Positions 45,021 to 60,694 of a DNA stretch of 64,000 nt are shown in pieces. The notes beneath the pieces were generated by a model. That model had not been told where the DNA came from, did no database searches, and worked only from the letters and a program-made list of their open reading frames with translations. Location of the stretch: contig CAWDKY010000015.1 in NCBI GenBank assembly GCA_963802945.1, positions 352,001-416,000 on the forward strand, written 5' to 3'. Origin of the DNA: an uncultured delta proteobacterium (lineage in GTDB: Bacteria; Desulfobacterota; RBG-13-43-22). The position numbers and the translations under genes are program-made. How positions within the stretch are numbered: the stretch's first letter is position 1; every line of letters begins with the position of its first letter.

Positions 45021-45085
45021 GGCTAAACCATCATTGCAGCGGACTCTGCGCCTACAGCCTCCGCCGCTGAACTAAAGTGTTCTCA
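45021..45085 (+). other. Degenerate attC-like site
   Basis: ggctaaac-catca-ttgcagcgg...ccgctgaa-ctaaagt-gttctca shows the paired L boxes with an extra base and degenerate R boxes. Confidence 0.55.
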
Positions 45086-45091
45086 CCGCCG

Positions 45092-45211
45092 TTTTGCTCG
45101 ATTTCAATCAGTAATCGTCAATTTTCAGGATTCCCTCTTTAGAAGAGTTGTAGGTGTAAGCTGCAAAAAAGGGTCATCTTGGCACTTTCCGTCAACCCAA
45201 CTACTGGTCAG
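45092..45211 (+). repeat. Degenerate dispersed repeat family B, copy 4 (a core-only copy 3 lies at 43930-43952)
   Basis: atttcaatcagtaatcgtcaa...ctctttagaagagttg...gtcaacccaactactggtcag. Confidence 0.7.
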
Positions 45212-45426
45212 GACAGTTACCAGACATACCGAATGAGTTTCTTCATTATTGATTCCTGAGAAGTAACTCACGTTTAAGTGGATCGTCGCAATATGCTGTA
45301 TCCAATTTCCGGTAAATACTGCAAAATATTTTTATGTAAGCCGTCAGTATTTCAAAAAACCGAGTTACTTCTCACGAATCATTATTTACCAGCGTCCCTA
45401 TTTTCACGATAGGGTTCCAGGAGGCG

Positions 45427-46206
45427 TTATTTCCCGCTCACGGCCGGCTCGTAGAAACCTTTAATTCTTTTTCTAAGCTTGGCCCAAGAGTTAGTGATCA
45501 AGAAGCTCTCCTCCATATTATCAACCATGCCTCTGAACTTGTTCATTGGAATAGAAAAGCTAAGGATTTCTTTAGGAACATAAGGCCTGGCTGAAACGTC
45601 AAACAGGCCCAAAACAGCCCTGGGTCGGTCCAGATCTTTTTCTAAATAGGGGTACAAAACAATGGATCCGCACCCGGCCCCAAAAGGAGCGATGACACTC
45701 TCACGCCCTGTTTCTTCAAAACCGGACAAGGTAAAAAGCCCGGACAATACATCCGGGGGTGCATAAAAAATGACCACCTCGACATCGTCCTCCTGAACAA
45801 GGTTATCCCATCTTTTAAAGACAATATACTTGCCCGGGGCCTCATACCAGGGAGATTCTTCCATCAGTTGTTTTACTATTTCCGGAGATTTTTTGTACCG
45901 TTCTCCTTCCATTTTTCCTTTTATTCCGCAGGAAAGGAAATATTCGAAGCCGGGTCTCAGGTCACGAGCATATCCTAGATACCTTTTCCCACCAGCACAA
46001 CCGAACGAATCCCCTCCAAAGCATAAAGACTTCCCTTTTCTCGCTTTATTTAAGACCCCGATGAAGCACTGGTGACCTGTTGCCGGACCCTTGACCAACT
46101 CCCCCCGTCCTTCCTGATCCGTATAATAGAAGGCTATCGGGAGTTCAGCCCCATTAAAATATTTTTTCCACAAACTGAGAAACTTGTCCTTAAATTCTAA
46201 ATCCAT
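45427..46206 (-). CDS. DUF169 family protein
   Basis: ELPIAFYY, GCAGGKRYLG, FLSCG..GERYKK, PFGAGC, GLFDVSAR. Confidence 0.85.
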   Translation of the reverse strand: MDLEFKDKFLSLWKKYFNGAELPIAFYYTDQEGRGELVKGPATGHQCFIGVLNKARKGKSLCFGGDSFGCAGGKRYLGYARDLRPGFEYFLSCGIKGKMEGERYKKSPEIVKQLMEESPWYEAPGKYIVFKRWDNLVQEDDVEVVIFYAPPDVLSGLFTLSGFEETGRESVIAPFGAGCGSIVLYPYLEKDLDRPRAVLGLFDVSARPYVPKEILSFSIPMNKFRGMVDNMEESFLITNSWAKLRKRIKGFYEPAVSGK

Positions 46207-46332
46207 GGCACCCTCCTATTGTTTTTGTCTTTTCTCATGTTTCTTGCCCCGCTCACATAACCCCTTTTTCTTCAAGAAACGATATGAATTGTAAAAATTA
46301 AAGATTTTACCCCGTACCCCCTGGTTCGATAG

Positions 46333-46683
46333 TCATTCTGTTTTTAATAATTTCTTTTCCTTCAATAGCTTTTCCACCTGGTCGGCATGCTCTACAGTAA
46401 ATCCGATATCGATCCACTGACCTTTCAGCTTGGCAAAAAAGATTCTATCTCGTTTGGGGCGTTTGAGGTCCAGGGGAAACCAAGTCTTGAAGTTCCCCGT
46501 ACCGTGGATCCTCCACTTCCCATTCCAAATGGTCGGTGTCTTTACGGTTACCCATTCAATATCGACCAGTTGCACAACCTTTTTCTTACCAGTCGGGAAA
46601 TAATAGTGATCAAAGACAATTTCATTCTCAGTCATAGAAATCAGATTGTCACGGTATATCATCTCGGGCTCTATTCTCCTCAT
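46333..46683 (-). CDS. Hypothetical protein, cassette-like
   Basis: 116-aa ORF (YYFPTG, WFPLDLKRP..R) beginning directly after an attC-like site; true start may be a few codons downstream. Confidence 0.7.
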   Translation of the reverse strand: MRRIEPEMIYRDNLISMTENEIVFDHYYFPTGKKKVVQLVDIEWVTVKTPTIWNGKWRIHGTGNFKTWFPLDLKRPKRDRIFFAKLKGQWIDIGFTVEHADQVEKLLKEKKLLKTE

Positions 46684-46746
46684 CGAATATTCGCTTAACT
46701 TGCGAACGGGCTTGGTCCCTGAGTCAAGTTGAAGCGGTTATTAGAC
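46682..46746 (-). other. attC-like site with both core triplets altered (AAT/ATT)
   Basis: Minus strand: GTCTAAT-aaccg-cttcaacttg...caagttaag-cgaat-ATTCGAT. Confidence 0.6.
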
Positions 46747-46779
46747 AACTGGAATATTTTTATCCTGTCGAGAATTACA

Positions 46780-46826
46780 GGGAACGGTTCTGATTATTTA
46801 TTATTTCACCTTAAAGAAACCGTCCC
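46780..46826 (+). repeat. 49-bp hairpin repeat family A, copy R1
   Basis: gggaacggttctgattatttattatttcaccttaaagaaaccgtccc. Confidence 0.92.
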
Positions 46827-46828
46827 AT

Positions 46829-48751
46829 TTATCCTATCTTTCTTCCTGCGGCAAAGCCTTCCTCAACCGCCTCTAAAACTCTTCTGACCTGAACGGCATC
46901 GCCTATGGCCATGACTTTATAGGGCTTGCCCTCCAGTTGATGGGTCAGTTTGTTTTCCGGATTAGATCCTACGGCCAGGATAACAGTATCGGCGGGAATT
47001 ATTTCTTCTCGGCCGTCCCTGGAAACGAGGATGCTTTTATCTAATATTTCTTTAACCGTGGTATTCACATAGATCTTTACTCTCTCCTTTTCCAGCCCTT
47101 TCAGGAGCAGCTCTCTTGGAATGGCCTCCACATCCTGAGCAATCTCAGCCAGTTGTTCGACGATGGTTACGGTCCTGCCAAGGCTTGCCAAATGATAAGC
47201 CGTTTCTGCACCTACCATACCGCCGCCGATGATTACCGATGTTCGTCCGCATTCTTTTTCGCCGTTAAGTACGGCGTTCGCGAATACCACCTGGCTTTTT
47301 TCAACGCCCTTTATTTGAGGCACTATTGGCACACTTCCCGTGGAAAGGATAACTGCATCCGGCTGCTCCGCATCAATCAGTTCTGCGGTCACTTCCGCAT
47401 TCAGATGAACTTCAACACCCAGTTTATTTATCTGGTTGATCTGCCAGGTCACAAAGGAGCTGAATTCTCCCTTGGCCGGCGGTATGGCCGCCAAATAAAA
47501 TTGGCCGCCCAGTCTGCCTCCCTTTTCGAACAACTTTACCCGGTGACCTGTCTTGGCAGCAATGATCGCCGCCTCCATTCCGGCCGGTCCCCCGCCAACG
47601 ACGACCACTTTTTTCTTAACCCATTTTGGTTCAGCGGACAGCTCATATTCCCTTCCCAGTTGGGGGTTAAGAGAACATTTAATCGGCTGGTATCGGCCGA
47701 GCATGCCTATACACCCCTGCATACAGCCGATGCAGCGGACAATATCCTCAAAATCACCGGCCGCCGCCTTGATGGGCAGCTCAGGGTCGGCCAGGGAGGC
47801 CCGACCCATGGCAATAAAATCCGCTTTCCCGGAGGTCAGGATTGTTTCTGCTACCAGGGGTTCAATAATTCTTCCCACCGTCATTACCGGAATAGTAACC
47901 ACTTTTTTTACTTCCTCGGCAAAATCCACGATCCAGCCTTGGGAAGTGGCGGCACTGGGCGTAATGGCGGCACTGCTTCCATAAACGCCGGCAGATACCA
48001 GGATGACATCAATTCCCGCCTCCTGCAATAAAACAGCGATGGCTTTGGTTTCCTCAATAGTCCTGCCGCCGGGGACATATTCATCCGCGGAGATTTTGAA
48101 GCCCAGGGGGAAATCCCTGCCCACCTTTGCCCTGATATTGGAGATAACCTCTAAGGTAAAGCGTACCCGATTGGGCAGGTTACCGCCGTATTGATCGGTT
48201 CGTTTATTGGAATAGGGCGATAGAAATTGGGCGATAAGATATCCATGGGCACCGTGTATTTCTATACCGTCAAACCCGGCCTTTTGGGTCCTTAAGGCGC
48301 AATCGCCAAATTTTTCTATTGTTTCCTGGATTTCATTTATGGTCATTTCGTGGGGCATGGTTTGATTGATCGGACAGGGTATGGGAGAGGGTGCCCAGGG
48401 TTGTCCGCCGATTACCAGGGGATTGGTCTGCCGGCCGGCATGATAAATTTGGGCGAAAATTTTACTGTGGTATTGATGAACTCTCCGGGTAAGCTCGGCA
48501 TGGCTTTTGATTTGAGCGTCCGCCCATAATCCGGCCAGCCTGGGGAAGCCCCTGCCTTGCGGGTCAATGGCATAATCCTCGGTAATGATCAGCCCCCAAC
48601 CGCCTTTGGCCTTGGCCTCATGGTAGGCAATATATTTTTCAGTAGCCGTACCGTCATCATGGCAATAGAGGGTTACCATGGCCGATACAACCAGTCGGTT
48701 GGTAATTTCCAAATTTCCAATTTTCATTGGGCTAAATAAATTTTTTAACAT
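46829..48751 (-). CDS. NADH:flavin oxidoreductase (OYE-like; BaiCD/BaiH/FadH family)
   Basis: KAKGGWGLII, EIHGAHGY, CIGCMQGC, GGGPAGMEAA, IGGGMVGAE; start moved to MLKNLF because the ORF-track extension is MITE sequence. Confidence 0.93.
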   Translation of the reverse strand: MLKNLFSPMKIGNLEITNRLVVSAMVTLYCHDDGTATEKYIAYHEAKAKGGWGLIITEDYAIDPQGRGFPRLAGLWADAQIKSHAELTRRVHQYHSKIFAQIYHAGRQTNPLVIGGQPWAPSPIPCPINQTMPHEMTINEIQETIEKFGDCALRTQKAGFDGIEIHGAHGYLIAQFLSPYSNKRTDQYGGNLPNRVRFTLEVISNIRAKVGRDFPLGFKISADEYVPGGRTIEETKAIAVLLQEAGIDVILVSAGVYGSSAAITPSAATSQGWIVDFAEEVKKVVTIPVMTVGRIIEPLVAETILTSGKADFIAMGRASLADPELPIKAAAGDFEDIVRCIGCMQGCIGMLGRYQPIKCSLNPQLGREYELSAEPKWVKKKVVVVGGGPAGMEAAIIAAKTGHRVKLFEKGGRLGGQFYLAAIPPAKGEFSSFVTWQINQINKLGVEVHLNAEVTAELIDAEQPDAVILSTGSVPIVPQIKGVEKSQVVFANAVLNGEKECGRTSVIIGGGMVGAETAYHLASLGRTVTIVEQLAEIAQDVEAIPRELLLKGLEKERVKIYVNTTVKEILDKSILVSRDGREEIIPADTVILAVGSNPENKLTHQLEGKPYKVMAIGDAVQVRRVLEAVEEGFAAGRKIG

Positions 48752-48800
48752 GCCTAGCCTTCCTAAATTATTTAACAGTTTTCTGAAAAACTTTTTTTTA

Positions 48801-48925
48801 ACAGGTTGCTCAAAAAGGTCCAGATGCGAGGCGCCCGAAAACCCGAGGAATGAGGCGTACATAGCAGTACGCCGCAGTGACGAGGGGTAAGGGCAACAAA
48901 GCAGATGGGCCTTTTTCAGCAACCT
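48801..48925. mobile_element. MITE-like element, copy 2
   Basis: acaggttgctcaaaaaggtcc...gggcctttttcagcaacct terminal inverted repeats, as at 10565-10721. Confidence 0.75.
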
Positions 48926-48959
48926 TTTAAAAGATCATGAATGATTATCTTAGCCGTTG

Positions 48960-49562
48960 TCATTTCTGAAACTTCGATGGTTTGAGCGCCTCCTGAAGTG
49001 TGGAGGCCATGTCCTGCTCCAAGGTTGCGACCCCTTTGATAACCCAAGGGCCGCCATTCTGCCAGTGAGCAGTAAAGTTGGTAATGGTTTGCCCGGTGGA
49101 AGGAGAGACGGCGAGAATCTCAAGGACCACGTCGGTTCCCCCCTCAACCAGGGCGAGGGAGGAGAAGAGCTTCACTATCGGTCCGAGTTCGCGGACAGTG
49201 ACGAAGAGAACCTGACTGAAGGTGCTCCCATAGACAGCGGCGATGGCAGGAACCTCTGTGGGCAGAAGGTCGATGGATTCTCGGTCGCCTATCTTGCGGA
49301 TGACCCTGACCTGGGCAAAGCACTCAGACGTGGAAAAGAATCGCTCAATCCCGCGCTGGGCAGCGGCCTCGCGGAAGGGAACATTCTTCTGATCGGGGCG
49401 CCACTTCGGACCCCAAAAAACAAGGGCCGAAGCCTGTTGGTTGGGCCCTTGACACAGGGGCTGCTGGGGAGCTTGCCCCGTGATTTGAAAATGCGTGCTG
49501 GCGCAGCCGGACAGCACAAGACCTAAGAGTAAAATCAATTTAACGGAACAGACGATGCGCAT
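48960..49562 (-). CDS. Putative lipoprotein
   Basis: Lipobox VLSGC after a hydrophobic leader; 200 aa. Confidence 0.75.
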   Translation of the reverse strand: MRIVCSVKLILLLGLVLSGCASTHFQITGQAPQQPLCQGPNQQASALVFWGPKWRPDQKNVPFREAAAQRGIERFFSTSECFAQVRVIRKIGDRESIDLLPTEVPAIAAVYGSTFSQVLFVTVRELGPIVKLFSSLALVEGGTDVVLEILAVSPSTGQTITNFTAHWQNGGPWVIKGVATLEQDMASTLQEALKPSKFQK

Positions 49563-49601
49563 GGAGAGAACCTCAATAACGCACTGGTAAAATTTAAAAA
49601 G

Positions 49602-49625
49602 AATTAAAGGGGACCTCCCCTTTAT
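49602..49625 (+). repeat. Collapsed family A repeat (outer arms only)
   Basis: aattaaaggggac-ctcccctttat keeps both family A flanks with the core missing. Confidence 0.6.
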
Positions 49626-49635
49626 GCTACACGTT

Positions 49636-50094
49636 TTAAAAAAATATCATGGCCAGCGCCTGGGCAACACAAGCTGGTTTTTCCTGTCCCTCAATTTCGA
49701 TGGTGTGGGTCTGTATCATGAGAAGCCGGTTGCCGGGCTTTTCTTCCAGCCCTGTAAGCACAATCCGGTCACGTATTTTTGCACCGGAAACCACAGGGTT
49801 GAGAAATCGCACCCTGTCCAGGCCATAGTTGATACTCATCACGACGCCTTCCATTTTCAACGGCACCTGATAGCTGAAAAACGGTAAATGGGAGAGGGTT
49901 AGATACCCGTGGGCGATGGTTTGACCGAACGGTCCTTTGGCGGCTTTTTCCAAATCCACATGAATCCATTGATGATCTTTCGTGCTGTCGGCGAATTGAT
50001 TGATCTGTTCCTGTGTCACCTGTGTCCAATCGGATAGGAAAATTTCTTTCCCGATGGACTTCTCCAGACTTTTTAATACCGATGCTAGTGACAT
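49636..50094 (-). CDS. MaoC-family dehydratase
   Basis: INQFADSTKDHQWIHVD, TIAHGYL, NYGLDRVRF. Confidence 0.92.
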   Translation of the reverse strand: MSLASVLKSLEKSIGKEIFLSDWTQVTQEQINQFADSTKDHQWIHVDLEKAAKGPFGQTIAHGYLTLSHLPFFSYQVPLKMEGVVMSINYGLDRVRFLNPVVSGAKIRDRIVLTGLEEKPGNRLLMIQTHTIEIEGQEKPACVAQALAMIFF

Positions 50095-50367
50095 GATTCA
50101 TTTCCCCTTTCAGTCTTTAACCTAAAGTCATCATAGCTGATTTAAGACATTTGCACAATACCGTATAATTCGAAAGCGGCATTCATTTTGGACTGTGCCA
50201 CCTGCGCTTATTCACGATTCGATCAAAAAGTTCAGCGATGGTCGAACAGGTCAAAACTCCATTGACACACCATATTGATCTTCATATACTCTCATCATGA
50301 AAAAGTAATGCCTTACCAATATATTCTCAGCGCTTTTTAAGAAAACAATTACACCAGGAGGGTTATC

Positions 50368-50751
50368 ATGTCCGCAATCGAAGAGGCCAAAAAGACTATG
50401 GAAGATTACTTTGCCGCTTTTAACTCAAGGGATGTGGAGGCTATCCGCAGACACCTGCATTTCCCGTTTAGCTGGATTATTAACACGCGTGTGCGGCCTG
50501 TCGCCAAGGCGTCTGAATTCGAATCTCCCACCCAAACACTTATCGAGACCGAGGGTTGGCATCACAGCGCCTTTGATTATATCGAGCCGGTGCAGGTGTG
50601 GGAAAATAAGGTTCACTTCAAGCTGGCTTACAGCCGTTTCAAGGCCGACGGCACCAGATACATGACCCATGAAGCACTCTGGATCGTGACCAAAGTTGAC
50701 GGTCGGTGGGGGATCTGTCTGATGTCCTTGAATATTCCCAAAACCGTCTAA
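50368..50751 (+). CDS. NTF2/SnoaL-like small protein
   Basis: AGGAGG RBS; YFAAFNSRD...LHFP...WIVTKVDGRWGI. Confidence 0.8.
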   Translation: MSAIEEAKKTMEDYFAAFNSRDVEAIRRHLHFPFSWIINTRVRPVAKASEFESPTQTLIETEGWHHSAFDYIEPVQVWENKVHFKLAYSRFKADGTRYMTHEALWIVTKVDGRWGICLMSLNIPKTV

Positions 50752-50764
50752 TAAATAATTAATT

Positions 50765-50812
50765 GGGCCGGTTCTGATTACTTAATTATTTCGCCTTAAA
50801 GAGAACCGTCCC
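50765..50812 (+). repeat. Family A repeat R2
   Basis: gggccggttctgattacttaattatttcgccttaaagagaaccgtccc. Confidence 0.92.
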
Positions 50813-50833
50813 TTTTATTCTCACAGTTAGGAA

Positions 50834-51355
50834 TCACCTATTCTTTAAAAACTGCTCGATCTCCTGCTTGTGTTGGGCTACGTAACTACAGCTTGGCTCT
50901 TGGCCGCACTTTCGACATTTCAGGTCGTAGGTGGAATTGATGGTCTGGCACCGTGGACAGGTATAGTCTTTCCTAATTTCCTTGAGCCATTGTTTGTAAC
51001 CCTTAGACTTGATTCGCTCAAGATTTTCCCAAAGGTCGATCCGATGAGGCATGGCAGATTGAAACTGCTTCAGTTCATCGCAGGGATACTCTTCACATTG
51101 GCTGCAAAAGGCGATGCCTCGTTCCGCTGCGCAAGCAAACATCTTGCATTTCTCGCAATAGGGCAACCTCTTGTCCGACCGGCATCCATAGCACTTGCTC
51201 TCTTCCGCTGATAAATGCAATTGTACCGCAAGCTTTTTGAGCCTTTCCTGATCTTCCGTGGTGGCGATAAACCATGAGCAGGCTTCACAGTAAAGGCCGC
51301 ATACAGCGGCTAATTTTTTGTCCAATTCTTCAAATTGCTTTTCTTCATTTTGCAT
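50834..51355 (-). CDS. DUF3795 Cys-rich protein
   Basis: AVCGLYCEAC, CYGCRS, CSQCEEYPC, CPRC...CRKC. Confidence 0.87.
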   Translation of the reverse strand: MQNEEKQFEELDKKLAAVCGLYCEACSWFIATTEDQERLKKLAVQLHLSAEESKCYGCRSDKRLPYCEKCKMFACAAERGIAFCSQCEEYPCDELKQFQSAMPHRIDLWENLERIKSKGYKQWLKEIRKDYTCPRCQTINSTYDLKCRKCGQEPSCSYVAQHKQEIEQFLKNR

Positions 51356-51400
51356 GACGACCTCCATCCTCATTTTCAAATACCTGCGGAATAAAATAAA

Positions 51401-51448
51401 GGAGCCGGTCCTGATTATTTATTGTTTCGCCTTAAAGAGAACCTTCCC
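51401..51448 (+). repeat. Family A repeat R3
   Basis: ggagccggtcctgattatttattgtttcgccttaaagagaaccttccc. Confidence 0.9.
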
Positions 51449-51529
51449 ATCTATCATGCTTCTCCCTATTGCCTTGAATTAAGTAACCTGTCCTCGGGAT
51501 AGCACGGCACTTTGTTTATTTCTATAAGG

Positions 51530-53020
51530 TCATCCGTTCGGTCCCTTGGTCACCGGTTTGCCTATGTCCCTGACAATGGCCTTCAATAAGGCCAGGTAAA
51601 GCAAACGGTGAAAAGGATACAGGACATACCAATAGAGGATCCCACCCAACCCTCGGGGTAAAAAGCGGGAGATCTGCTCAAGCTCGGTATTGCCATCCGG
51701 AAGAGGCCGGATTTTGAATTCCAGGAGGGCTTCGCCGGGCAGCTTCATTTCAGAGACTAATATTAAATGAACCAAAGGTGTTATTTCCAATACTCGCCAA
51801 AAATCCAGGGCTTCGCCGGGCAGTAAATCAGTCGGATGGCGTCTTCCTCTCCTGAAACCGACACCCCCGACCAGGCGGTCAACCCAACCCCTGATTTTCC
51901 AGAGAATGTTTTCAGAATACCAGGCTTTCCCGCCCCTGCCTTGAATTACAGATTTCCAGACCTCTTCCGGATGGGCTTTAAAGCGAACACGAAAGCTCAT
52001 TTCCAGAATAGTCCCACCGGCATACTGAGTATCCCCGCAATAGTACCATTCCTGGGGAACAATAGCGCCGGCATCCATCCAGCAGGTATCAATTCGTTGC
52101 TGATCAATGCGGTCCAAGGCCAAGCGAATGGTTTGTCGGCAGTCCAGTAATTCTTGGGGGATGATGTCCCGGATCCGCTGGTCCTGGCAAGTAACTGGAT
52201 TACGCAATCCTTCAGTCAGAGGTCTGGCGATGGAAGAAGGGATCGGGGTGAGGAGATGGATCCAATAAGAACTAAACCTTGGGGAAAGGATTGGGATCGG
52301 AATAATCCACCGCTTGTGAAGATGGGCCTCTTGGGCATAGAGCTGAAAAAGTTTCCGATAGGTTACCACATCAGGCCCGCAAATATCAAAGTTCTCACCT
52401 AAAACCTCATCATGCTCCAGACACCCCTGCAGATAATTCAAGACGTTTCGGATGGCGATGGGTTGAACCGGAGTATTCACCCAGCGGGGGGCGAGCATAA
52501 TGGGTAACCGATCCCCAAGATAACGGACCAACTCAAAAGAAGCACTCCCGGATCCCAAAATCATGGCGGCCCGCAGGAAGGTAGCCGGCACCTGGCCGGA
52601 CTGTAAAATCCGGGCCACCTCCTGCCGGGAGCGCAGGTGTTCACTGAGCCGGCGATCATCGCGACCGCCCAATCCCCCCAGATAGATGATCCGATTTAAA
52701 CCGGCCTTGGCAGCCGCTTCAACCATATTTTGGGCTGCCCGCCGGTCGGTCTTGGTATACCCTTTAGGGTCGGCATTCATGGAGTGGACCAGATAGAAGG
52801 CAGCCCAGCATCCAGCCACAGCCTGATTTAAGGATTCTTGGTTCAAGACATCCCCGGTTGCCAACTCGACTAAGGGATGATTCCCCCAGGGACGCCCTTT
52901 TAATTTAGCCGCCGATCGCCCTAGAGCACGAACCTTATAACCGGCTCTTAAAAGTTGGGGAACCAGCCTTCCCCCCACATATCCTGTCGCTCCGGTAACT
53001 AATACAGGTTGGGTGTGCAC
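51530..53020 (-). CDS. NAD(P)-dependent oxidoreductase with DUF2867 (YbjT-like)
   Basis: VTGATGYVGGRL, YLVHSM, GSGSASFE, LDFWRV, EMKLPGEA, PRGLGG.LYWY. Confidence 0.9.
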   Translation of the reverse strand: MHTQPVLVTGATGYVGGRLVPQLLRAGYKVRALGRSAAKLKGRPWGNHPLVELATGDVLNQESLNQAVAGCWAAFYLVHSMNADPKGYTKTDRRAAQNMVEAAAKAGLNRIIYLGGLGGRDDRRLSEHLRSRQEVARILQSGQVPATFLRAAMILGSGSASFELVRYLGDRLPIMLAPRWVNTPVQPIAIRNVLNYLQGCLEHDEVLGENFDICGPDVVTYRKLFQLYAQEAHLHKRWIIPIPILSPRFSSYWIHLLTPIPSSIARPLTEGLRNPVTCQDQRIRDIIPQELLDCRQTIRLALDRIDQQRIDTCWMDAGAIVPQEWYYCGDTQYAGGTILEMSFRVRFKAHPEEVWKSVIQGRGGKAWYSENILWKIRGWVDRLVGGVGFRRGRRHPTDLLPGEALDFWRVLEITPLVHLILVSEMKLPGEALLEFKIRPLPDGNTELEQISRFLPRGLGGILYWYVLYPFHRLLYLALLKAIVRDIGKPVTKGPNG

Positions 53021-53053
53021 GAAGATCTCCAATAATTTTTGTGGAACATGGGG

Positions 53054-53790
53054 TCAAGTTTGGTACAGACCGCCATTGACCTGGATGGTTTGTCCGGTCA
53101 TATATCCATTGCCAACCAGCATAAGGGCCACATCGGCCACCTCTTCCACGGTCCCGAAACGACCGACCGGAATCCGGTCCGGTCTGGCCTTGATGCCATC
53201 ACTCATCATATCGGTGATGATCAGGGCCGGGCATATGGCATTGACCGTGATCCCCTCCTTGAATAACCGGGAAGCGTAGGAATGGGTGAGGCCCAGGATA
53301 CCGGCCTTGGAGGCCGCATAATGAGGGCCCACAACCCCGCCGACCTGGGCGGCGGTCGAGGACAGGTTGATGATCCTTCCCCATCGCTGGGACCGAAGGC
53401 CCGGCAAAACCGCTTGGGTCACCAGGTAACAGGATTTCAGATTGATCCTGAGCGTTTCGTCCCAGACTTCTTCGGTCATTTCCTCAAGGCCCCGGGGTTT
53501 GGCAATCCCGGCATTGTTTATAAGGATGGATATGGGTCCCAGTTCCATCTCGATGGTTTCTGACCAATCGGCTCACCTCTTCCGCCTGGCTGACATCGGC
53601 CTGTACGGCCAGACTGCGACGGCCAAGACTTTTGATCTCCGAACTCACCTCCTGGGCCTCGTTTTCATGGGTTTTAAAATTGACCGCCACATCAGCACCG
53701 GCTTTGGCCAAGGACACCGCAATGGCCCGGCCGATTCCCCGACTGGCCCCGGTCACTAAAGCGATCCGGCCGCTTATTTCCGAATGTCAT
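53054..53790 (-). CDS. SDR (FabG-like) oxidoreductase, frameshifted
   Basis: TGASRGIG, NNAG and YAASK lie in separate frames; indels near 53780 and 53555. Confidence 0.87.
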
Positions 53791-53813
53791 CTTTTCATCC
53801 CTTCTTTATTGAA

Positions 53814-54203
53814 TTAGGCTTTCGTGAACAGCTCGGGGTTGGCGTATTTGGTAATGTCAATAGCGAAATGGACAAACAAATCCTTTTGGCCCCCGATGGG
53901 GAGCCAATAGGAATCCACGAACCGTTTACTGGGGGCATAATAGCCGACGGATCTTTTGCCCACCCCTTCTTCCAAAGCCGAATTTCCCAGACACTGTTTA
54001 TGAATACAATCATCTCCGGATAATTGATAGCATTTCATTCCCAAGCGAACCCCTCTGTCTCTGGCTGTTTGGTTGAAATCTACAATAGTCCGATCTTTTC
54101 TTAAGAGGAAAACAGGAGTAGGAAACATATCCCACATCAAATGAAAGGCTTTTAAAATCTCCGGATTGACCTCAATATTGTCAGGCTCTTGACTCTTTTC
54201 CAT
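53814..54203 (-). CDS. Stand-alone PAS-like small protein, copy 1
   Basis: VFLLRKDRTIVDFN...KCY...CIHKQC; near-identical to 56846-57235. Confidence 0.78.
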   Translation of the reverse strand: MEKSQEPDNIEVNPEILKAFHLMWDMFPTPVFLLRKDRTIVDFNQTARDRGVRLGMKCYQLSGDDCIHKQCLGNSALEEGVGKRSVGYYAPSKRFVDSYWLPIGGQKDLFVHFAIDITKYANPELFTKA

Positions 54204-54244
54204 TTTTGTTCCTTCCAATGCTTACCGACCATATAAAAATTAAA

Positions 54245-54292
54245 GGGGATGGTTCTGATTATTTATTATTTCGCCTTAAAGAGAACCGTCCC
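54245..54292 (+). repeat. Family A repeat R4
   Basis: ggggatggttctgattatttattatttcgccttaaagagaaccgtccc. Confidence 0.93.
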
Positions 54293-54436
54293 ATTTATCC
54301 ACAAGATCTCAAATAAAAAAATGATAACACTCCAATTTGTTGAAGTCAAATTACCTTGACAGGCCATATTTTCTCCCTCTATACTTCACTCACCCAAAAG
54401 AAAATCCAAATCAAAGATAAAGAAAGAGAAAATAAC

Positions 54437-55522
54437 GTGAACCAGATTGATCCAATTTACCAGGAATTAGCGGAAAAAATGGGGAGTCCCGATTCAAAAA
54501 TATTACCCAGAGTACTCCAGAGGCTGGCTACTCTGGAACAGGCCCAAATCCTGCGCGAAATGCCGGCTTCCTTTGAGGAAATCGCCAAAAAGTTAGGCTT
54601 GAGCTTGGAAACAGTGGAAAAGCTAATGCAAGGGCCGTTTGAAAATGGGGTTATTTTCCATGGCAAGCATGGTTGGCGTATGCCGGCAAACTGGTTTTTC
54701 TTACACGACATGGCTGGGTCATCCGAGTCCAAGTATGACGATGACGTATTTTTTGATTTGATGATGGATGTGCATAATGAGAACATAGAACGGCTGGTAA
54801 AACGATTAAAAGAAGCCAAGGAACCGACTCTGAAGCAAGTGCAGAGAGTAGTTCCCGACTGGAAAGCCATCCAGGGTATACCCGGCGTTCTACCACATGA
54901 AAACACATTCGTAGGCTTTAAAGATGTATCACCGGTCGTTTCGATTAATTGCGCCTGCAAGAGGCTCTACCGTGACAGGAAGTGCAAAGATGATATCCCT
55001 CTCCGAGTATGCTTTACTGCCGGCAGATCCGGAAAGGTGGCTCTCGAACGCGGACTCGGGAGGGAGATCAACCACGATGAATATTTGGAGATTCAGGAGC
55101 GAGCTACCGAATATGGACTCGTTCATCTTTATCCGAATAATTCCAAAATACCCGACGGGATATGTAACTGCCATCATTGCTGTTGCGGTCAATTCTTGAT
55201 CAGTGCCCATACGAAGCCGAATTTTAATCTGCTCTCGATTGCCAAGAGTCGTTTCATTGCGGAAGTGGACCAGGAGAAGTGCAGGGGTTGCAGGAAGTGC
55301 GTGGATAAGAGATGCCCGGTCGGTGCGGCTCAGATGAAATTTTCCCCTGAATATGGTGAGGACCGTGCCTTTATTGATACGGAAGAATGCATTGGCTGCG
55401 GACTCTGTGTGCTGACCTGCCCAACTGGGGCCCGTAGGATGGAGTTAGTCAGACCGCCGGACCATATTCCGGAACCCCGTAACTTTTCTTTATCTGAAAT
55501 AGTTGCTGATTTAGTGTCCTAA
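54437..55522 (+). CDS. 4Fe-4S binding protein with N-terminal HTH-like region
   Basis: NCACK, ICNCHHCCC, CRGCRKCVDKRCP, CIGCGLCVLTCP. Confidence 0.87.
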   Translation: MNQIDPIYQELAEKMGSPDSKILPRVLQRLATLEQAQILREMPASFEEIAKKLGLSLETVEKLMQGPFENGVIFHGKHGWRMPANWFFLHDMAGSSESKYDDDVFFDLMMDVHNENIERLVKRLKEAKEPTLKQVQRVVPDWKAIQGIPGVLPHENTFVGFKDVSPVVSINCACKRLYRDRKCKDDIPLRVCFTAGRSGKVALERGLGREINHDEYLEIQERATEYGLVHLYPNNSKIPDGICNCHHCCCGQFLISAHTKPNFNLLSIAKSRFIAEVDQEKCRGCRKCVDKRCPVGAAQMKFSPEYGEDRAFIDTEECIGCGLCVLTCPTGARRMELVRPPDHIPEPRNFSLSEIVADLVS

Positions 55523-55635
55523 ATTTGGTGCGAACACGACTTATTTCTTCAAAAATTCGAGGGACCATATTTATTTCCAATTTAAAAATTAAATTAGTAT
55601 GGATGTCCCCCGATTTAGTCCCGCTTTAAATTAAA

Positions 55636-55684
55636 GGGGACGGTTCTGATTATTTATTCTTTCGCCTTAAAGACAACCGTCCCC
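55636..55684 (+). repeat. Family A repeat R5
   Basis: ggggacggttctgattatttattctttcgccttaaagacaaccgtcccc. Confidence 0.93.
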
Positions 55685-55718
55685 TTTATCTTTTTCCCGA
55701 TGTCGTGGAATTCAACAA

Positions 55719-56468
55719 TCAATCTTTAAATCCGAATATTGCACTTTGAATGATTCTGGTTGCCATGATCATTTGTTCTGCCTTCATATAGGCACCACTC
55801 ATTCTATGTGTCTCTTTTCTATATTCTCTTGCATGTTCTTCTGACCAGAAGAAAACACACTCAGTTCAGAATGAATCGATAATACTATCGTCTTTGAGTT
55901 TGAATAAATCTATATCCGGTACAAAGATTACCGGTTCGCATCCTCCGTCCTTGACCTTATAGCGAAGATCACTGTCAATCTCGATTTCCATCGGACAAGA
56001 GCAGTGGGCACATTCGGTTTCAATTTGTACCATCAGGTGTTCGTTTCGTAATTTCCCTTGCACGAAGGGCGTTGCAAATGCATCTGCCGCTCAGGCGGCA
56101 TACAATTTTTCACCTGTGCTAAAAGAAATTTTGTGTGGGGTTTTATCAACCGTGACCGGATAGGCCCACACCACATCTCCCTTTCTGTTTCTATAGAGGA
56201 AGGTCATGCGCTTTTCCAGATAATCCAATGCGGTTTTAACACCATCAACCGAAAAACCAATCTCGTTCGATATGAATTCCGGGGATAAAGGCTTACTTTG
56301 ACGCGGGAGTTCTCTTACCACGAAATGATGAATCAGACGATATTCCTCGGATAGAGCGCCTTGTTCTTTTTCAAATTTTCTTCTTCCTTTAGCTATTTGT
56401 TTCTGCCATAAAAATGGCGGGACTTTAATTATATACCGCCACATTCCAAGCATGAGTTTATTACTCAC
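55719..56468 (-). CDS. MerB-like organometallic lyase, probable selenoprotein with two in-frame UGA (249 aa)
   Basis: A single frame read through TGA 56091-56093 (LYAA-U-AAD) and TGA 55866-55868 (DSF-U-TECVFFWSEEHA) mirrors MerB LYAWCALD and SFCCHVHFFAS; WAYP...TPH and CAHC are also present. Confidence 0.85.
55829..55860 (-). promoter_or_regulatory. Bacterial SECIS-like hairpin after the second UGA
   Basis: UGA-ACUGAGUGUGUU-UUCUUCU-GGUC-AGAAGAA: 7-bp stem with a GGUC loop starting 12 nt after the UGA, extendable by UGUGUU/AACAUG pairing. Confidence 0.7.
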
Positions 56469-56620
56469 AGAAATTTTCCTTTCAATCTATTTGAGGTTTC
56501 AAATGTTTAGTCGCATAAAATTTCAGCTAACCTGCCGCGCCAATGACCCACCCTTGGCCCTTTTCCAATTTTAAATGATATCGGAACCTAAAGTAGAACA
56601 ACGGTCTTGTTTAATTAATT

Positions 56621-56667
56621 GGGAGGATTCTGATTATTTATTATTTCGCCTTAAAGAGAACCACCCC
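56621..56667 (+). repeat. Family A repeat R6
   Basis: gggaggattctgattatttattatttcgccttaaagagaaccacccc. Confidence 0.9.
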
Positions 56668-56845
56668 ATTTATTCTATGCCAAATATAATTGGGAATAAA
56701 ATATCGATTAGCTCCTGGCATCGCTGTTCTGCTTAAACCGTCATACCCTGAATGGAATTTCAATCTGTTGTCCCGGTCCGACCCTTATTTGATTATTGAA
56801 ATCTCAGTTATGTCAACAGAATTTTCAAGGTAACCTTAAATTGGA

Positions 56846-57235
56846 TTAGGCCTTCGTGAACAGCTCGGGGTTGGCGTATTTGGTAATGTCAATAGCGAAA
56901 TGGACAAACAAATCCTTTTGGCCCCCGATGGGGAGCCAATAGGAATCCACGAACCGTTTACTGGGGGCATAATAGCCGACGGATCTTTTGCCCACCCCTT
57001 CTTCCAAAGCCGAATTTCCCAGACACTGCTTATGAATACAATCATCCCCGGATAATTGATAGCATTTCGTACCCAAACGAACCCCTCTGTCTTTGGCTGT
57101 TTGGTTGAAATCTACAATAGTCCGATCTTTTCTTAAGAGGAAAACAGAAGTGGGAAACATATCCCACATCAAATGAAAGGCTTTTAAAATCTCCGGACTG
57201 ACCTCAATATTGTCCGGCTCTTGACTCTTTTCCAT
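56846..57235 (-). CDS. Stand-alone PAS-like small protein, copy 2
   Basis: Differs from copy 1 at 4 of 129 residues. Confidence 0.78.
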   Translation of the reverse strand: MEKSQEPDNIEVSPEILKAFHLMWDMFPTSVFLLRKDRTIVDFNQTAKDRGVRLGTKCYQLSGDDCIHKQCLGNSALEEGVGKRSVGYYAPSKRFVDSYWLPIGGQKDLFVHFAIDITKYANPELFTKA

Positions 57236-57342
57236 TTTTTTCCTCCCGATGCTACCATATAAGATTTACTATATATGCCGAATGAGTTTCATACTTATTC
57301 ACCAGCATCCCAAGTTTTCTTAAATTAAGGAAACTGTCCCCC

Positions 57343-57385
57343 GGATTACAGATTATTTATTTTTTCACCTTAAAGAGAACACCAC
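57343..57385 (+). repeat. Family A repeat R7 (degenerate)
   Basis: gattatttattttttcaccttaaagagaacacc, flanked on both sides by the aattaag(t/g)aaactgtcccccg motif. Confidence 0.8.
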
Positions 57386-57468
57386 TTTATTCTTGAATTA
57401 AGTAAACTGTCCCCCGAATAGTCTGGCCTGGTACCTCTGCTTATTGGAAGGAGGAGAGAAAGAAAAAA

Positions 57469-58506
57469 TTATTGCTTTGTTCTAAATTCCTTTAACATCG
57501 TACACTCAACGAGCTTATCCAGATTCTGTAGTGTAAACACCTTCCCCCGTGTTGCCAAGATTATCCTTTTCATATCTTCCCGCCGGACCCCGAAACCGCG
57601 GCCTGCGATGCATGCGATGACTTCGTACTTCGGCTTTCCCTCTGACTGTCCTTCCATACTCAGCGTACCCAGGCGTTGAATGCGGGCGACTTTGTCACGC
57701 GCCGTACCATCGTCCTCGGTTATTTTCGCTTCAATGATCGCCTGTGGATTGAATTCACTGGGAATAATGAAATCAGGTGTCTGATCAAAACCTTGAATTT
57801 TCTGTGCCCTTTTTGTTTTCCGGTAGGTGATACCTGCCTTGCTTAACACATCCTCAATTGCCGATTCCAGACTGTCTCCGATAAGATCGCTCACGGAGTC
57901 CCGGTGACCCGCGAAGGGTCTGCCAAGGAACCGCTCATAGAGCAGCATGGCATAAGGAACCCCGATATCTGCAAGTGATCTTATACCATCCAGACCTGTT
58001 CTCGTATCGGCCTTGTCAAGCCGATGTATTTTGTTCCGTGCCACATTCGGTACGTTCTTTTTAAGAAACTCACACGCGGTTACGATCAAGGCATTCAGCC
58101 GTTCCGCGCTCAGGCTGCTGATCTTAAGAGGTGTTATCGGTGCCAGCCGGATATCCCGATCAAGCGTACGAACGAAACCTTGGGTGACCACGATTTTTGT
58201 ATGCTGAGTGGCGATATAAGCCCACTCCGGCGGTGTGAAACCCAAAATGGTACGAATAACAATGACCGATACAGGCACGGCCTTAACGCAATCCATGACC
58301 ACCTCGGGTGTCAGGGTACGAAAACCGCCTGTTGCCTGTTTCAACGCTTCGTATCCTTTTTCAAACACTGGATATTCGACGAATCCATCACCTTTTGGCA
58401 TGATAAGAAATTCTGACTCAAGACAAGAAAATATCGCTGTCACATACTGATCAGGATCAGCCTGCACGTCCTCAAAAGGAACTTCAAAAGAAAATTTCAT
58501 CATCAT
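57469..58506 (-). CDS. PD-(D/E)XK nuclease, putative restriction endonuclease
   Basis: GDSLE...TPDFIIP...IIEAK motif; overlaps the 3' end of the methyltransferase gene. Confidence 0.72.
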   Translation of the reverse strand: MMMKFSFEVPFEDVQADPDQYVTAIFSCLESEFLIMPKGDGFVEYPVFEKGYEALKQATGGFRTLTPEVVMDCVKAVPVSVIVIRTILGFTPPEWAYIATQHTKIVVTQGFVRTLDRDIRLAPITPLKISSLSAERLNALIVTACEFLKKNVPNVARNKIHRLDKADTRTGLDGIRSLADIGVPYAMLLYERFLGRPFAGHRDSVSDLIGDSLESAIEDVLSKAGITYRKTKRAQKIQGFDQTPDFIIPSEFNPQAIIEAKITEDDGTARDKVARIQRLGTLSMEGQSEGKPKYEVIACIAGRGFGVRREDMKRIILATRGKVFTLQNLDKLVECTMLKEFRTKQ

Positions 58507-60694
58507 CCGCTCCATATCGTTTTGACTTTTCCCGTACAACGGAGATCTTGACCTGCTCAAGGTGTTCCGTCTCTTCGCTAACATGCCGTCCGACAGCCTC
58601 TAGTCCACCGAATTCCTCGATCTTCGAAACAAGTGCTGCTGTTTTTTCTTGAACCGGTCTTGTATTGTCCCAAGTATGGCGAAGGTGCCACACCGCGAGC
58701 CGTGTAAAATGACCATAGATAATGCAGCGAACATCACCGCGTGTTTCCTTTACGCCCGCCTGGCGAAGGTTTCCCACATCATCCCTCACCAGGTCAGCAA
58801 AAGCCATGGGAGTATTAGCTAACCATCGGGCCGGTACGGAGCCGGTGCTTCGACAAACGAAGACCGTATCGACAATAGATGAACCAGTGCCGCTGATATG
58901 GATCGAAGCCCCCATCTCGGCAGGGCAAGGTAACGATGCGGAACAGACCAAGCTGGAATCGAGCATTGCAATAGCGATCGGATAATAGGCTTCGAGACTA
59001 TTGTGATGATAGGTAAACACCATCGGATGGCCGGGCTTTAAGGCTTGCGCCATTTTGCGGAACACGACCGAAAGTCCTTCCGTAAAATAATCGAGCCCCC
59101 GCTTCATATTAACGTTGCCGGTCAATTCCTGTTTGTCGCGCGTCGTACCTCGCGCAAATGCGGGATCGCCCGTACCCACGAGCTTGCGCAGCCATACATA
59201 GCAGAAATCCATCAACTCGGCATACTGCACATTGCTGTAATATGGCGGGTCAGTGAATACCGCATCCACTGACCTAGGTTGAAGGTCCGCTTCCATGGAG
59301 CTTTGGCTAAGAAGCCGCACCTGGCGTCTGATAGGTGGGGAGGTTCCGTTTTTCTGGTCCCCGATCCATTCACCACGAACAGGGACCTGAATCTTGCGGC
59401 CATGTTCGTGCCGTATCTCAAAAGGCGCATCGCAATAAGCTTTGGCTTTATAATATTTTTCGATAATATTGGCCCAGCCGCCGCTCCCCACGTTCATACC
59501 CCCGCCATTTATGATGCCGAGAAAGTTCGACTCGCACTGTACGAGCCCTATAGGGAAACCATGGACTGAAAAGATGTCAAGAGACTTTAGCGCCATTGAA
59601 TCATACCTGCAGAGCATATTCTGATAACGGAGCAGGTCCGAAAGGTTGGTTGCAAGTGCGTTCCGCACACGCTCATCAGAGACATCCGCGATGGCCCGGC
59701 AGCTCAATTCCAGCCCGAGGAGCTGGCGCAAATTGAACATCTCACGATACTTCTGGTACCCCCATCTATGGAGCCGTGCAGTCTCATCGCCACCCAATAT
59801 AATATCATCCGGCACAAACAAGGTCTTCATGCTATTCAACCTGTTTGTGGCCTCCGTATATTTGGCCAGATCGGTTCGCGAGGGCTTCTTAAAGAACCTG
59901 CCCTCGTGCTGTGGTTTGCATTTTTTACAGTGATACTCCATGGCGTACATCCGATGAGTTGGTGGATGCTCGGGCTTGAAGGAGTAAAAGTTTGGCTTGC
60001 CGCAGTGTTTGCACTCGTATTTGCTCCTCTTTGCTGGACCATCAACTAGAATTCGTTCGCCGCATGACTTGCACTTGCCCGGTCGATGTCGATCTTTTAC
60101 TCCGTTCAATTCCCCGCAGGACGCGCACACATATATGTTCTCAGGATGTCGTTTGTCCTCCGCAAGCAGGTACCCAGGAAAAAGATCATTCGCCTTGCCG
60201 CAGTTGGCGCAGGTATGCTGTTTTACCCAGAGGAAATATTTTACATGTGCCTTTCTTGATCCGCACTCAAGACAGGTTGTATGATATAAGCTCCCGATAT
60301 TTTGTTCCAACCCGCTGACAAGCTCATCCGCTGCTTTACGATAGGCCTTTAAGTCCAGGTGTTCAATCTCTTGCCGCACGATCCAGTAGGCCATTGGGTT
60401 GATGTCATAGCCGATCACATCGCATCCAATGCGGTTTGCTTCAACGATAGGGGTACCTCCGCCCATGAAGGGATCGACCACGACAAGGCCGGAGAGGTTA
60501 TTGGAAGAGTAGAAAGTGTCCTGCAGCGGTTTGTTTACAAACTCCGAGAGAAGAAGCCCACGGAAAAGCGTACCCGGTCGCCGCGCAAACCACTTATGCA
60601 CAGCGATAATAGGCCGGTAATTCTGCTGAATTTGCTTTTCATGCAAAGCCAGGGAAGAGATAAATGGTATGTCGAATTTTTTTTCAATGGACAT
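58484..60694 (-). CDS. Amino-DNA methyltransferase (DUF1156-like) with multiple CxxC motifs
   Basis: HKWFARR, motif I DPFMGGG, motif IV TDPPY, six CxxC pairs between the motifs. Confidence 0.88.
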   Translation of the reverse strand: MSIEKKFDIPFISSLALHEKQIQQNYRPIIAVHKWFARRPGTLFRGLLLSEFVNKPLQDTFYSSNNLSGLVVVDPFMGGGTPIVEANRIGCDVIGYDINPMAYWIVRQEIEHLDLKAYRKAADELVSGLEQNIGSLYHTTCLECGSRKAHVKYFLWVKQHTCANCGKANDLFPGYLLAEDKRHPENIYVCASCGELNGVKDRHRPGKCKSCGERILVDGPAKRSKYECKHCGKPNFYSFKPEHPPTHRMYAMEYHCKKCKPQHEGRFFKKPSRTDLAKYTEATNRLNSMKTLFVPDDIILGGDETARLHRWGYQKYREMFNLRQLLGLELSCRAIADVSDERVRNALATNLSDLLRYQNMLCRYDSMALKSLDIFSVHGFPIGLVQCESNFLGIINGGGMNVGSGGWANIIEKYYKAKAYCDAPFEIRHEHGRKIQVPVRGEWIGDQKNGTSPPIRRQVRLLSQSSMEADLQPRSVDAVFTDPPYYSNVQYAELMDFCYVWLRKLVGTGDPAFARGTTRDKQELTGNVNMKRGLDYFTEGLSVVFRKMAQALKPGHPMVFTYHHNSLEAYYPIAIAMLDSSLVCSASLPCPAEMGASIHISGTGSSIVDTVFVCRSTGSVPARWLANTPMAFADLVRDDVGNLRQAGVKETRGDVRCIIYGHFTRLAVWHLRHTWDNTRPVQEKTAALVSKIEEFGGLEAVGRHVSEETEHLEQVKISVVREKSKRYGADDDEIFF

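Follow-up and report, generated by a model that had tools for sequence, protein, structure and literature searches.

A hairpin repeat, probably derived from TIRtron ends, between accessory gene units of an uncultured delta proteobacterium

The array and its repeats

We have studied a stretch of 64,000 nucleotides from an uncultured delta proteobacterium of the RBG-13-43-22 lineage (assembly GCA_963802945.1, contig CAWDKY010000015.1, positions 352,001–416,000 of the forward strand). We call this whole stretch the window, and positions given without a contig label refer to it. It contains an array of unrelated genes separated by copies of a 49-bp hairpin repeat. We think that the repeat probably is a miniature hairpin derived from a TIRtron, a transposon in which a gene for a Y1/HUH transposase lies between long inverted ends. 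Here it would be an orphan, located between accessory gene units at the seams where the locus changes. The genome under study (G000) has an assembly of 4.37 Mb in 72 contigs. It was compared with samples of 14 genomes from its genus, 21 from its family and 301 from its phylum, presumably the Thermodesulfobacteriota (200 genera). All of them are metagenome-assembled genomes (MAGs). Comparison genomes are labelled G, loci or contigs used for comparison L, and contigs C.

Repeat finding and pattern searches detect six complete copies of the repeat and a partial one, all of them on the plus strand and within 10.6 kb. R1 (46780..46827, 78.5 bits) has lost one nucleotide in its right arm and abuts the stop codon of an old yellow enzyme (OYE) gene. 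R2 (50764..50813, 85.8 bits) carries an inserted nucleotide in its centre, and its left arm is degenerate. The arms of R3 (51401..51449, 78.7 bits) and R6 (56620..56668, 86.3 bits) are mismatched. R4 (54245..54293, 92.9 bits) is the nearest to the consensus, and R5 (55636..55684, 92.1 bits) forms the best hairpin, with a DNA fold of -14.3 kcal/mol and a z value of -4.9. In R7 (57351..57385, 28.1 bits) only the centre and a degenerate right arm are present; the left arm is gone. The distances from start to start are 3985, 636, 2844, 1391, 984 and 719 bp. In the 64-kb window the 13-nt core of the repeat has 7 matches, with 0.21 expected by chance, and a 30-mer of the repeat has 6, with 0.00 expected. 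Some pairs of copies have about 35 identical bases in common. An idealised consensus with perfect 12-bp arms gives no match: no copy has it.

There are also remnants on the same strand. A collapsed copy (49604..49630, 22.6 bits) has only the outer arms (…AAAGGGGAC|CTCCCCTTT…) and is terminator-like on the minus strand. A diverged sequence similar to half a copy, which we call Module B, is found after R3 (51471..51500) and on the left (57317..57346) and right (57390..57419) of R7. We rejected Module B as a genome-wide family: its 28 matches at two mismatches are close to chance level by our estimate. Pattern searches found no further copy in the rest of the window. An initial annotation, made from the sequence alone, had described seven co-oriented copies within about 10.6 kb and none elsewhere in the window. 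The orientation, the extent and the seven sites agree with our searches, but only six copies are complete, the last one (R7) being partial, and the remnants and Module B had been overlooked.

Regex and nhmmer profile scans of the whole genome added a single locus, C16:210368-210427, which is present again on C20, a duplicate contig with 95.7% identity. This genome then has eight repeat loci, of which a single array holds seven. The copies form a cluster with a common orientation, and they do not show the pattern of a high-copy, dispersed family of repetitive extragenic palindromes (REPs) or miniature inverted-repeat transposable elements (MITEs), which agrees with the initial annotation. In a public genome collection the sole match was one MAG contig of Thermodesulfobacteriota, and no copy was found in viral contigs or in plasmid and phage collections. 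Two short contigs of the assembly are close duplicates of larger ones: C20 is 95.7% identical to C16:205227-211552 and C56 is 97.8% identical to C15:86395-92000. These duplicates point to strain heterogeneity in the assembly, which has a contamination estimate of 6.7%.

Genes in and beside the array

The genes between the repeats have no relation to one another and lie mostly on the minus strand, as had been annotated. On that strand we first find an open reading frame (ORF) without any family match, ORF116 (46333..46683), which forms a unit with R1. It is followed by a gene which codes for an OYE-type FMN oxidoreductase fused to a pyridine-nucleotide-disulphide reductase (46829..48922). Its stop codon abuts R1, in agreement with the initial annotation, and the real start of the gene probably lies downstream of that of the ORF. 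Next come ORF200 (48960..49562, no family match), a MaoC-like dehydratase (49636..50094), a DUF3795 protein (50834..51379), an NmrA-like/DUF2867 protein (51530..53032) and a short-chain dehydrogenase (53054..53756), split here into two frames of 164 and 90 aa. This dehydrogenase is intact (244 aa) in genomes G005 and G008, unlike G000. Then we find ORF134 (53814..54218, no family match), ORF125 (56091..56468), with a weak MerB-like match (E 0.003), and ORF129 (56846..57235), a paralogue of ORF134 with 97% identity over 300 nt. The sole confident gene of the array on the plus strand codes for a 4Fe-4S ferredoxin-domain protein (54356..55522). A segment of about 595 bp (50158..50757), which abuts the left flank of R2, contains ORF127, also on the plus strand.

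The flank with the higher coordinates is a patch of defence and mobile genes, with a type II methyltransferase which has a DUF1156 part, GmrSD fragments, an rve transposase and a PIN gene. ORF371, in the region 57469-60694, borders the array in both G000 and G005 and has a PD-(D/E)XK-like motif. Its nearest clusters in feature space are restriction endonucleases (0.98). It overlaps the methyltransferase gene (736 aa), and because of this overlap we consider the two a probable restriction-modification pair. ORF371 was also tried as a nuclease or recombinase of the array. It has no sequence match in Pfam, NCBIfam, PADLOC or PDB, and we read it as part of the restriction-modification pair.

Other repeats are present in the window. 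At 48775-48927, a MITE of about 150 bp with inverted ends separates the OYE gene from ORF200. Each of the 14 genomes of the genus has copies of it with 80–89% identity, and they number dozens. The orthologous site of G005 is without this MITE, and a copy with TTAA on both sides splits the repeat Rc/Rd of that genome. A further short repeat, at 63313-63459, matches several places in contig C32 of G004 and in L052. A tRNA-Arg(CCG) gene with an adjacent integrase fragment of 174 aa is located at C15:443412-443927 (L012 7412-7927). As a link to the array it was discarded: a distance of 34 kb, occupied by ordinary metabolic genes, separates the two.

Differences between related genomes

Contig C102 of G005 has a counterpart of the array with about 93% identity, in which R2 and R3 have as orthologues the copies Re and Rf. 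Leaving the MITE aside, all four differences between the two arrays have a boundary at the edge of a repeat or remnant. ORF116 and R1 are present in G000 and not in G005, and the break on the right is at the outer edge of R1. G005 has three extra units bounded by repeats at the place where G000 has only the collapsed copy, the orthologue of the right half of Rd. The 595-bp segment beside R2 is found in G000 and not in G005. Finally, the content beyond ORF134 differs, and the G005 copy located there is without its left arm and centre.

Boundaries at repeat edges are also found in L050, L051, L053, G008 and in L052 when it is compared with C15:416060-418694. In the metagenome contig L050 the neighbour of ORF116 and its repeat is a carboxyltransferase gene, in place of the OYE gene of G000. 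ORF134 and its repeat stand beside four different neighbours, in G000, G005, L051 and L053: R4 has moved with this gene in the three contexts other than its own. L052 has a complete repeat between a PIN region and the stop codon of a Band-7 gene; at that place G000 (C15:416060-418694) has a segment of 2.6 kb and only a remnant of the right arm. In G008 four of the array genes are found in another order, with only half a copy of the repeat.

The initial annotation had proposed a gene-capture array. Two observations were expected to speak against it: intervening genes that are syntenic in relatives without the repeat, and copies scattered through the genome like an ordinary REP or MITE. In repeat-less congeners the array genes are scattered and not syntenic, and the copies of the repeat are clustered, so that neither objection applies. 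The comparison of unit order between relatives, also suggested there, has disclosed gain, loss and reordering at the edges of the repeats.

Homology stops consistently at the right edge of the repeat, which moves with the gene located downstream in the sense of the genes. In one orientation relative to the flanking genes we find 19 of the 21 genome copies; the two that differ are the solo locus and the orthologue of this locus in G005. Public runs gave shares of 0.12 or less; contigs from four of them, belonging to a G005-like strain, have the G005-type arrangement and no other joints, as far as assembled contigs are concerned. GC skew was too noisy to define replichores and thus to serve as a test of strand-specific insertion.

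Relation to the ends of Y1 transposons

A covariance model of the repeat gave strong matches in G005 (9, with some copies counted on both strands), G004 (3), G008 (1) and G011 (1). It also gave weak matches in other families. In these the arms are identical (…ATAAAGGGGACGGTTCT… and …AGAACCGTCCCCTTTAT…), and the centres are quite different and longer. A 14-mer of the arm (GGGGACGGTTCT…) is present in 54 of the 301 genomes sampled in the phylum and in 43 of the 200 genera, and a genome can have as many as 22 copies; the reversed word, used as a control, has 11 matches in 10 genomes. Considered as a genomic word similar to an uptake signal, the arm is not enriched.

In three genomes of other families the inverted arms are found about 750 bp apart around a single ORF of 233–236 aa: in G253 (L102, arms at 1537 and 2289), G063 (L110, 2330 and 3082) and G093 (L100, 5311 and 6046). 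The three ORFs are Y1_Tnp genes (E 1e-14 to 1e-16). One of the proteins, P0002, passes the NCBIfam model NF047646 for REP-associated tyrosine transposases (RAYTs), with 81.9 bits and a cut-off of 80. The other two stay under this cut-off, with 77.5 and 77.9 bits. P0002 has a HUH motif (…NHVHLV…) and a second motif (…SYVELNPVRAG…) which we take to hold the catalytic tyrosine. The initial annotation had guessed a HUH/Y1 enzyme similar to those of IS200 elements or RAYTs, and the arms around these three genes bear it out. It had offered a site-specific recombinase as an alternative; for a tyrosine or serine recombinase as the actor we have no support in our analysis.

Such an arrangement is typical of TIRtrons, in which a RAYT-like gene, called TIRYT, lies between long inverted ends, many of them starting with GGGGWSAS (Di Nocera et al. 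2013, PMC3733652). The ends of TIRYTs are described in the same work as forming repeat families in dimers or clusters, and most TIRYTs have been placed in subclass 2.1 of TnpA-Y1 (Quentin et al. 2018, PMC6006769). The outer end of the array repeats, GGGGACGG, coincides with this motif in 7 of 8 positions. Sister families fit it in all eight, both in G000 (GGGGTCAG) and in G004 (GGGGACAC). The sister family of G000 (GGGGTCAGGTCTATTTT…) has Y1 genes and 42 arm matches dispersed over 20 contigs, including dimers spaced 39–48 bp, with a design like that of the 49-mer. As it is the case for TIRYT ends, the arms of our repeat are also found away from the Y1 gene, as singles, dimers and groups.

Since the inverted arms bracket a RAYT-like Y1 gene in other families, the 49-mer is, as judged from its sequence, a minimal head-to-head dimer of TIRtron/TIRYT terminal inverted repeats (TIRs). 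When it is aligned with the ends of the Y1 family, it is seen to contain a left end (GGGGACGGTTCTG.TTATT), a centre of about 11 nt and a right end (…TTAAAGAGAACCGTCCCC). The initial annotation had described 12-bp arms over a 25-bp core. The inverted arms are there, but the perfect consensus is found in no copy, and the conserved and putatively functional unit is better read as two inverted ends of about 19 bp with a centre of about 11 nt. A likeness of the 37-nt stretch GGGG…TAAAG to the 38-bp ends of the Tn3 family was dropped in view of the link with Y1 genes.

Structure and decay of the repeats

The stem of the repeat is continuous and has 12–16 bp. The consensus arms are perfectly complementary, and the sites of mismatch vary between copies. 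Most copies have arm mismatches which are not compensated, and only R5, and R4 to a lesser degree, clearly fold better than shuffled sequences. In a covariation test the paired cells of the stem amount to 83.8%, versus 83.6% when shuffled (7 sequences); in a larger set the values are 82.3% and 81.4% (21 sequences). The stem shows no covariation: it is not maintained by compensatory change. Among paralogues the conservation of the AT-rich centre equals or exceeds that of the arms, as the initial annotation had noted for its 25-bp core.

When copies are compared with their orthologues in G005 we find substitutions and indels, with a divergence equal to or larger than that of the flanks. Truncated or collapsed copies are common, and their breakpoints vary. 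Nevertheless, a left fragment which ends after GGGGAC(G) is found repeatedly just before a fresh copy, namely in L050, G217 (L099) and G150 (L106). The foot of the arms has neither GTAG nor GTGG and single arms are not palindromic, so that the repeat is not a canonical REP unit of the GTAG type.

The architecture of the array is similar to that of integrons, and clusters of attC sites without an integron integrase (CALINs) are common (PMC4889954). The repeats could then be unusual attC sites, left by an integron integrase or served by it in trans. Congeners do have such integrases: TIGR02249 gives 296–386 bits, with a cut-off of 265, in six of the 21 family genomes (G001, G002, G004, G007, G009 and G010; for example L094 11075-12010). 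Their arrays have not been assembled, because most of the integrase genes are at contig ends. In G000, however, TIGR02249 gives at most 79.6 bits, under the same cut-off, and no match with E <= 1e-30 is found in G005 or G008. The structure does not fit either. In attC sites the base of the stem carries AAC…GTT boxes, and there are unpaired spacers and extrahelical bases (PMC4889954). In our repeats there are no R''/R' boxes in this order at the stem base; the arms have GTT…AAC near the loop, and the consensus has neither bulged bases nor central spacers that are unpaired. The gene which the repeat accompanies is the downstream and not the upstream one, which is the reverse of the behaviour of attC, and the arms of the repeat belong to a family which flanks Y1 genes. 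A crude attC-style scan found no match on any repeat, although it is noisy, with 0.4–1.1 matches per kb everywhere; beside the intI gene of G009 this noisy scan gave three canonical-looking attC candidates which are dissimilar to each other. An integron remnant appears to us extremely improbable.

The position of the repeats suggests an additional role. Read in the sense of the genes, the copies present an A-tract, a GC-rich stem and a T-tract directly after stop codons. Stop codons which the repeat abuts are those of the OYE gene, of the Band-7 gene of L052, of the carboxyltransferase gene of L050 and of an ORF beside the G011 copy. From this arrangement we infer that the copies probably also act as terminators or insulators.

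One could go further and consider the repeat as a purely regulatory module, a terminator-promoter or operator, spread by local duplication and gene conversion and unrelated to transposition. The single orientation of 19 of the 21 genome copies relative to the flanking genes would agree with it, as would the tight location behind one stop codon and before the start codon that follows, the conservation of the AT-rich centre and a weak sigma-70-like match inside R5 on the gene strand. But only one of the seven copies reaches the threshold of the promoter scan, and Rfam gave no match at E <= 1 over positions 45000-59000. The flanking genes are unrelated, and therefore duplication alone cannot have placed the copies. 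Besides, the arms are common to families of the phylum which have unrelated centres, and they bracket Y1 genes. A regulatory module of this kind is improbable.

Search for a cognate enzyme

No Y1 gene with the arms of the array was found in G000, in G005 or in the genus. The Y1 proteins closest to P0002 have 37% identity in G000 and 42% in the genus, each of them with different arms. Nor is such an enzyme encoded in the window, as had been annotated initially. The copies of G000 are most likely orphans which are now decaying, because no cognate enzyme has been found, the arm mismatches are uncompensated and some copies are truncated.

G000 has its own TIRYT-like Y1 genes within other inverted ends, at C33:35403-36340, C16:245750-246685 and C30:107810-108455. 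The C33 and C16 copies are near-identical only inside their ends, like insertion sequences, and the C30 copy is frameshifted. More genes of this type are found at C16:58625-59715, C17:145316-146045 and C37:6790-7690.

Other candidates were discarded. The 13-mer core has an exact match near IS200-type tnpA genes (C15:88068 and C56:1671), but it lies inside a NifS/IscS-like coding gene and is a chance match. IS91 elements have GTTC as their target; their Y2 transposase has no match in G005 and G011, which carry the repeat, and 14 in G013, which does not. In G004 a broken IS91-type (Y2) transposase, with a tyrosine recombinase adjacent to it, is located between two repeat copies (L044, G004:C32, 3971-5926). 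The distribution of this transposase does not track the repeat.

Other arrays in the phylum

Genome G217, from another family, has an array of 10 co-oriented copies over about 11 kb (L099, G217:C75, 4650-15415). Their arms are as in the G000 array and their conserved centre is their own. The two arrays are independent. The genes in this array code for PIN (twice), GNAT (twice), HEPN, Sel1, RNase T and glycosylase proteins. The L099 array can be described as containing toxin-antitoxin, GNAT and repair genes, with duplicated PIN-GNAT units. A Y1 gene is also found inside it. It has different arms and is an unrelated inserted element. A different arrangement is present in G093, where a module of about 2.2 kb, with a DNA methylase and an HNH endonuclease, lies between a pair of TIR dimers inverted with respect to each other (L101, G093:C63, 3298-5641).

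Origin of the array

We propose that each repeat would be a non-autonomous element formed by two TIRs of about 19 bp (outer end GGGGACGG…), placed head to head over a centre of about 11 nt. Either strand could be folded into a hairpin, and the element would be the TIR counterpart of a REPIN, the REP doublet which forms a hairpin. The autonomous form would have identical ends around one RAYT-like Y1/HUH gene, as seen elsewhere in the phylum, in other families. The enzyme, if it acts like those of IS200/IS605 and TnpA-REP, would attach to the folded end while the DNA is single-stranded, cut it and rejoin it. Single-stranded circles are described for these systems, and TnpA-REP reportedly cleaves and rejoins REPs (PMC6006769). 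The gain, loss and reshuffling of units at the copies might be due to past action of the enzyme, or to ordinary recombination or deletion between or within repeats of about 50 bp.

Several points weigh against a TIRtron origin. The arms of the array match GGGGWSAS at 7 positions and not at 8. The cognate Y1 gene is found only in distant genomes, so that there is no enzyme-repeat pair in the lineage itself, although in MAGs an enzyme which is not found is not necessarily absent. The conservation of the centre could reflect a function of its own. Full copies are not called by a terminator scan, because their 25-nt loop exceeds the limit of the scan. Lastly, typical REP and TIR families are dispersed, whereas seven of the eight loci are found here in one co-oriented array of 10.6 kb, which simple transposition does not predict.

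A stronger proposal is a working cassette platform. Pairs of co-oriented dimers would be the ends used by a Y1/HUH enzyme which acts in trans or was formerly present. A segment would leave as a single-stranded circle with one dimer and re-insert at another dimer: a counterpart of the integron based on HUH chemistry. In three independent loci units have been gained, lost and reordered at repeat edges. A gene with its repeat appears beside different neighbours, in two contexts for ORF116 and in four for ORF134, and units are duplicated within arrays (ORF134 and ORF129; PIN and GNAT, twice each, in G217). The array of G217, with 10 co-oriented copies, shared arms and its own centre, is an independent one. 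Its cargo and that of our array are typical accessory or defence material. The left-arm fragments ending in GGGGAC(G) just before a fresh copy (L050, L099, L106) and the reported cleavage and rejoining of REPs by TnpA-REP (PMC6006769) would also be in agreement with a platform. On the other hand no cognate enzyme has been found in G000, G005 or the genus, and in the remaining truncated copies the position of the break varies. The divergence of orthologous copies is no smaller than that of their flanks and shows no compensatory change, and the repeat moves with the downstream gene. Neither excision circles nor joints other than those of the G005-type architecture were seen in the contigs available. 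Furthermore, recombination between repeats of about 50 bp could yield an identical pattern. We consider a working platform unlikely. Slightly less likely still is the more general case, in which cassette arrays of TIR dimers driven by Y1/HUH enzymes would have been built independently in at least two families of Thermodesulfobacteriota (that of the genus under study and that of G217) and would persist without an enzyme, being served in trans. Any two dimers would then be the ends of a composite single-strand transposon, and domesticated transposon ends would have assembled accessory and defence genes into an analogue of the integron.

For the gene-capture array of the initial annotation the outcome is mixed: the turnover of units at repeat edges is there, but a cognate enzyme is missing, the breaks are varied and compensatory change is absent. 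Cassette-like turnover is plausible, and an operating cassette system unlikely. Decaying TIR dimers derived from a TIRtron are the origin which we prefer.

Implications

RAYT and TIRYT proteins and their repeats are widespread, and their role for the hosts is still open (PMC5581495, PMC6006769). The family of TIR dimers described here combines a low copy number, no enzyme found and a position at the seams of a fast-changing accessory array; this arrangement at seams recurs in the distant family of G217. If the seams were made by an enzyme, there would be a second route to cassette arrays besides integrons, with a distinct mechanism. It would bear on how cassettes arise, since the origin of integron cassettes is given as an unknown mechanism (Cury et al. 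2016, PMC4889954). If they result only from recombination between short repeats, relic transposon ends would structure genome plasticity in uncultured peat anaerobes. In either case caution is needed: arrays which look like integrons in raw sequence may be arrays of REPINs or TIRs.

Comparison with known systems

The repeats differ from those of CRISPR arrays by their spacing of 636–3985 bp, occupied by genes, in place of spacers of about 30–40 bp. With bacterial MITEs, such as the one at 48775-48927, they have in common a short non-coding sequence with inverted ends derived from a transposon; unlike that MITE, the 49-mer is not dispersed. The pdif modules are built on 28-bp XerC/XerD sites with a 6-bp spacer, which alternate in orientation and are found on plasmids. 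Our repeats have arms of 12–19 bp about 11–25 bp apart, a single orientation and a chromosomal location; in a comparison by eye with the dif consensus, their arm spacing of 25 nt and their sequence do not resemble it. What both share is that gene modules outside integrons are bounded by short sites and shuffled, as described in Acinetobacter plasmids (PMC6449649, PMC13141974).

With integron arrays and CALINs the similarity is in the organization: co-oriented sites of folded DNA between small, unrelated accessory genes which are mostly co-directional (PMC4889954). Arrays without a nearby integrase are common among them, and the sites within one array are alike (Cury et al. 2016, PMC4889954). 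Unlike integrons, our array has no R/L boxes, unpaired spacers or extrahelical bases, and no IntI was found in G000. Its site moves with the downstream gene and its arms are those of a Y1 transposon family. The initial annotation had already stated that the repeats fit neither attC sites nor CRISPR, and the order of the boxes, the continuous stem and the spacings lead to the same conclusion.

REPINs are closer. They also consist of two inverted units with a short spacer, form a hairpin and are non-autonomous (Bertels & Rainey 2011, PMC3116915, PMC3337134). Their mobilisation has been attributed to a Y1 transposase which is present in a single copy and has the repeat on its own flanks (PMC3116915, PMC3337134). 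The difference is in the unit: each REP is by itself an imperfect palindrome, short and with a GT[AG]G tag on its 5' side (PMC3733652, PMC6006769), and these small palindromes with the tag GTAG are dispersed in hundreds of copies, unlike the units of our array, which are plain inverted ends at 8 clustered loci per genome with no resident enzyme found.

The closest system is the TIRtron. Our array differs from it by the 7 of 8 positions of its arms on the motif, by the cognate gene, which was not found in G000, and by its organization in one co-oriented array with kilobase spacing which separates genes, in place of dispersed or tightly clustered ends. Thermodesulfobacteriota are not among the phyla described in the passages of PMC3733652 and PMC6006769 considered here. 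The features in common are those of the element itself: a RAYT-like Y1/HUH gene within long inverted ends starting with GGGG[AT][CG]A[CG] (PMC3733652, PMC6006769), and ends which are also found alone, as dimers and in groups, in families of moderate size.

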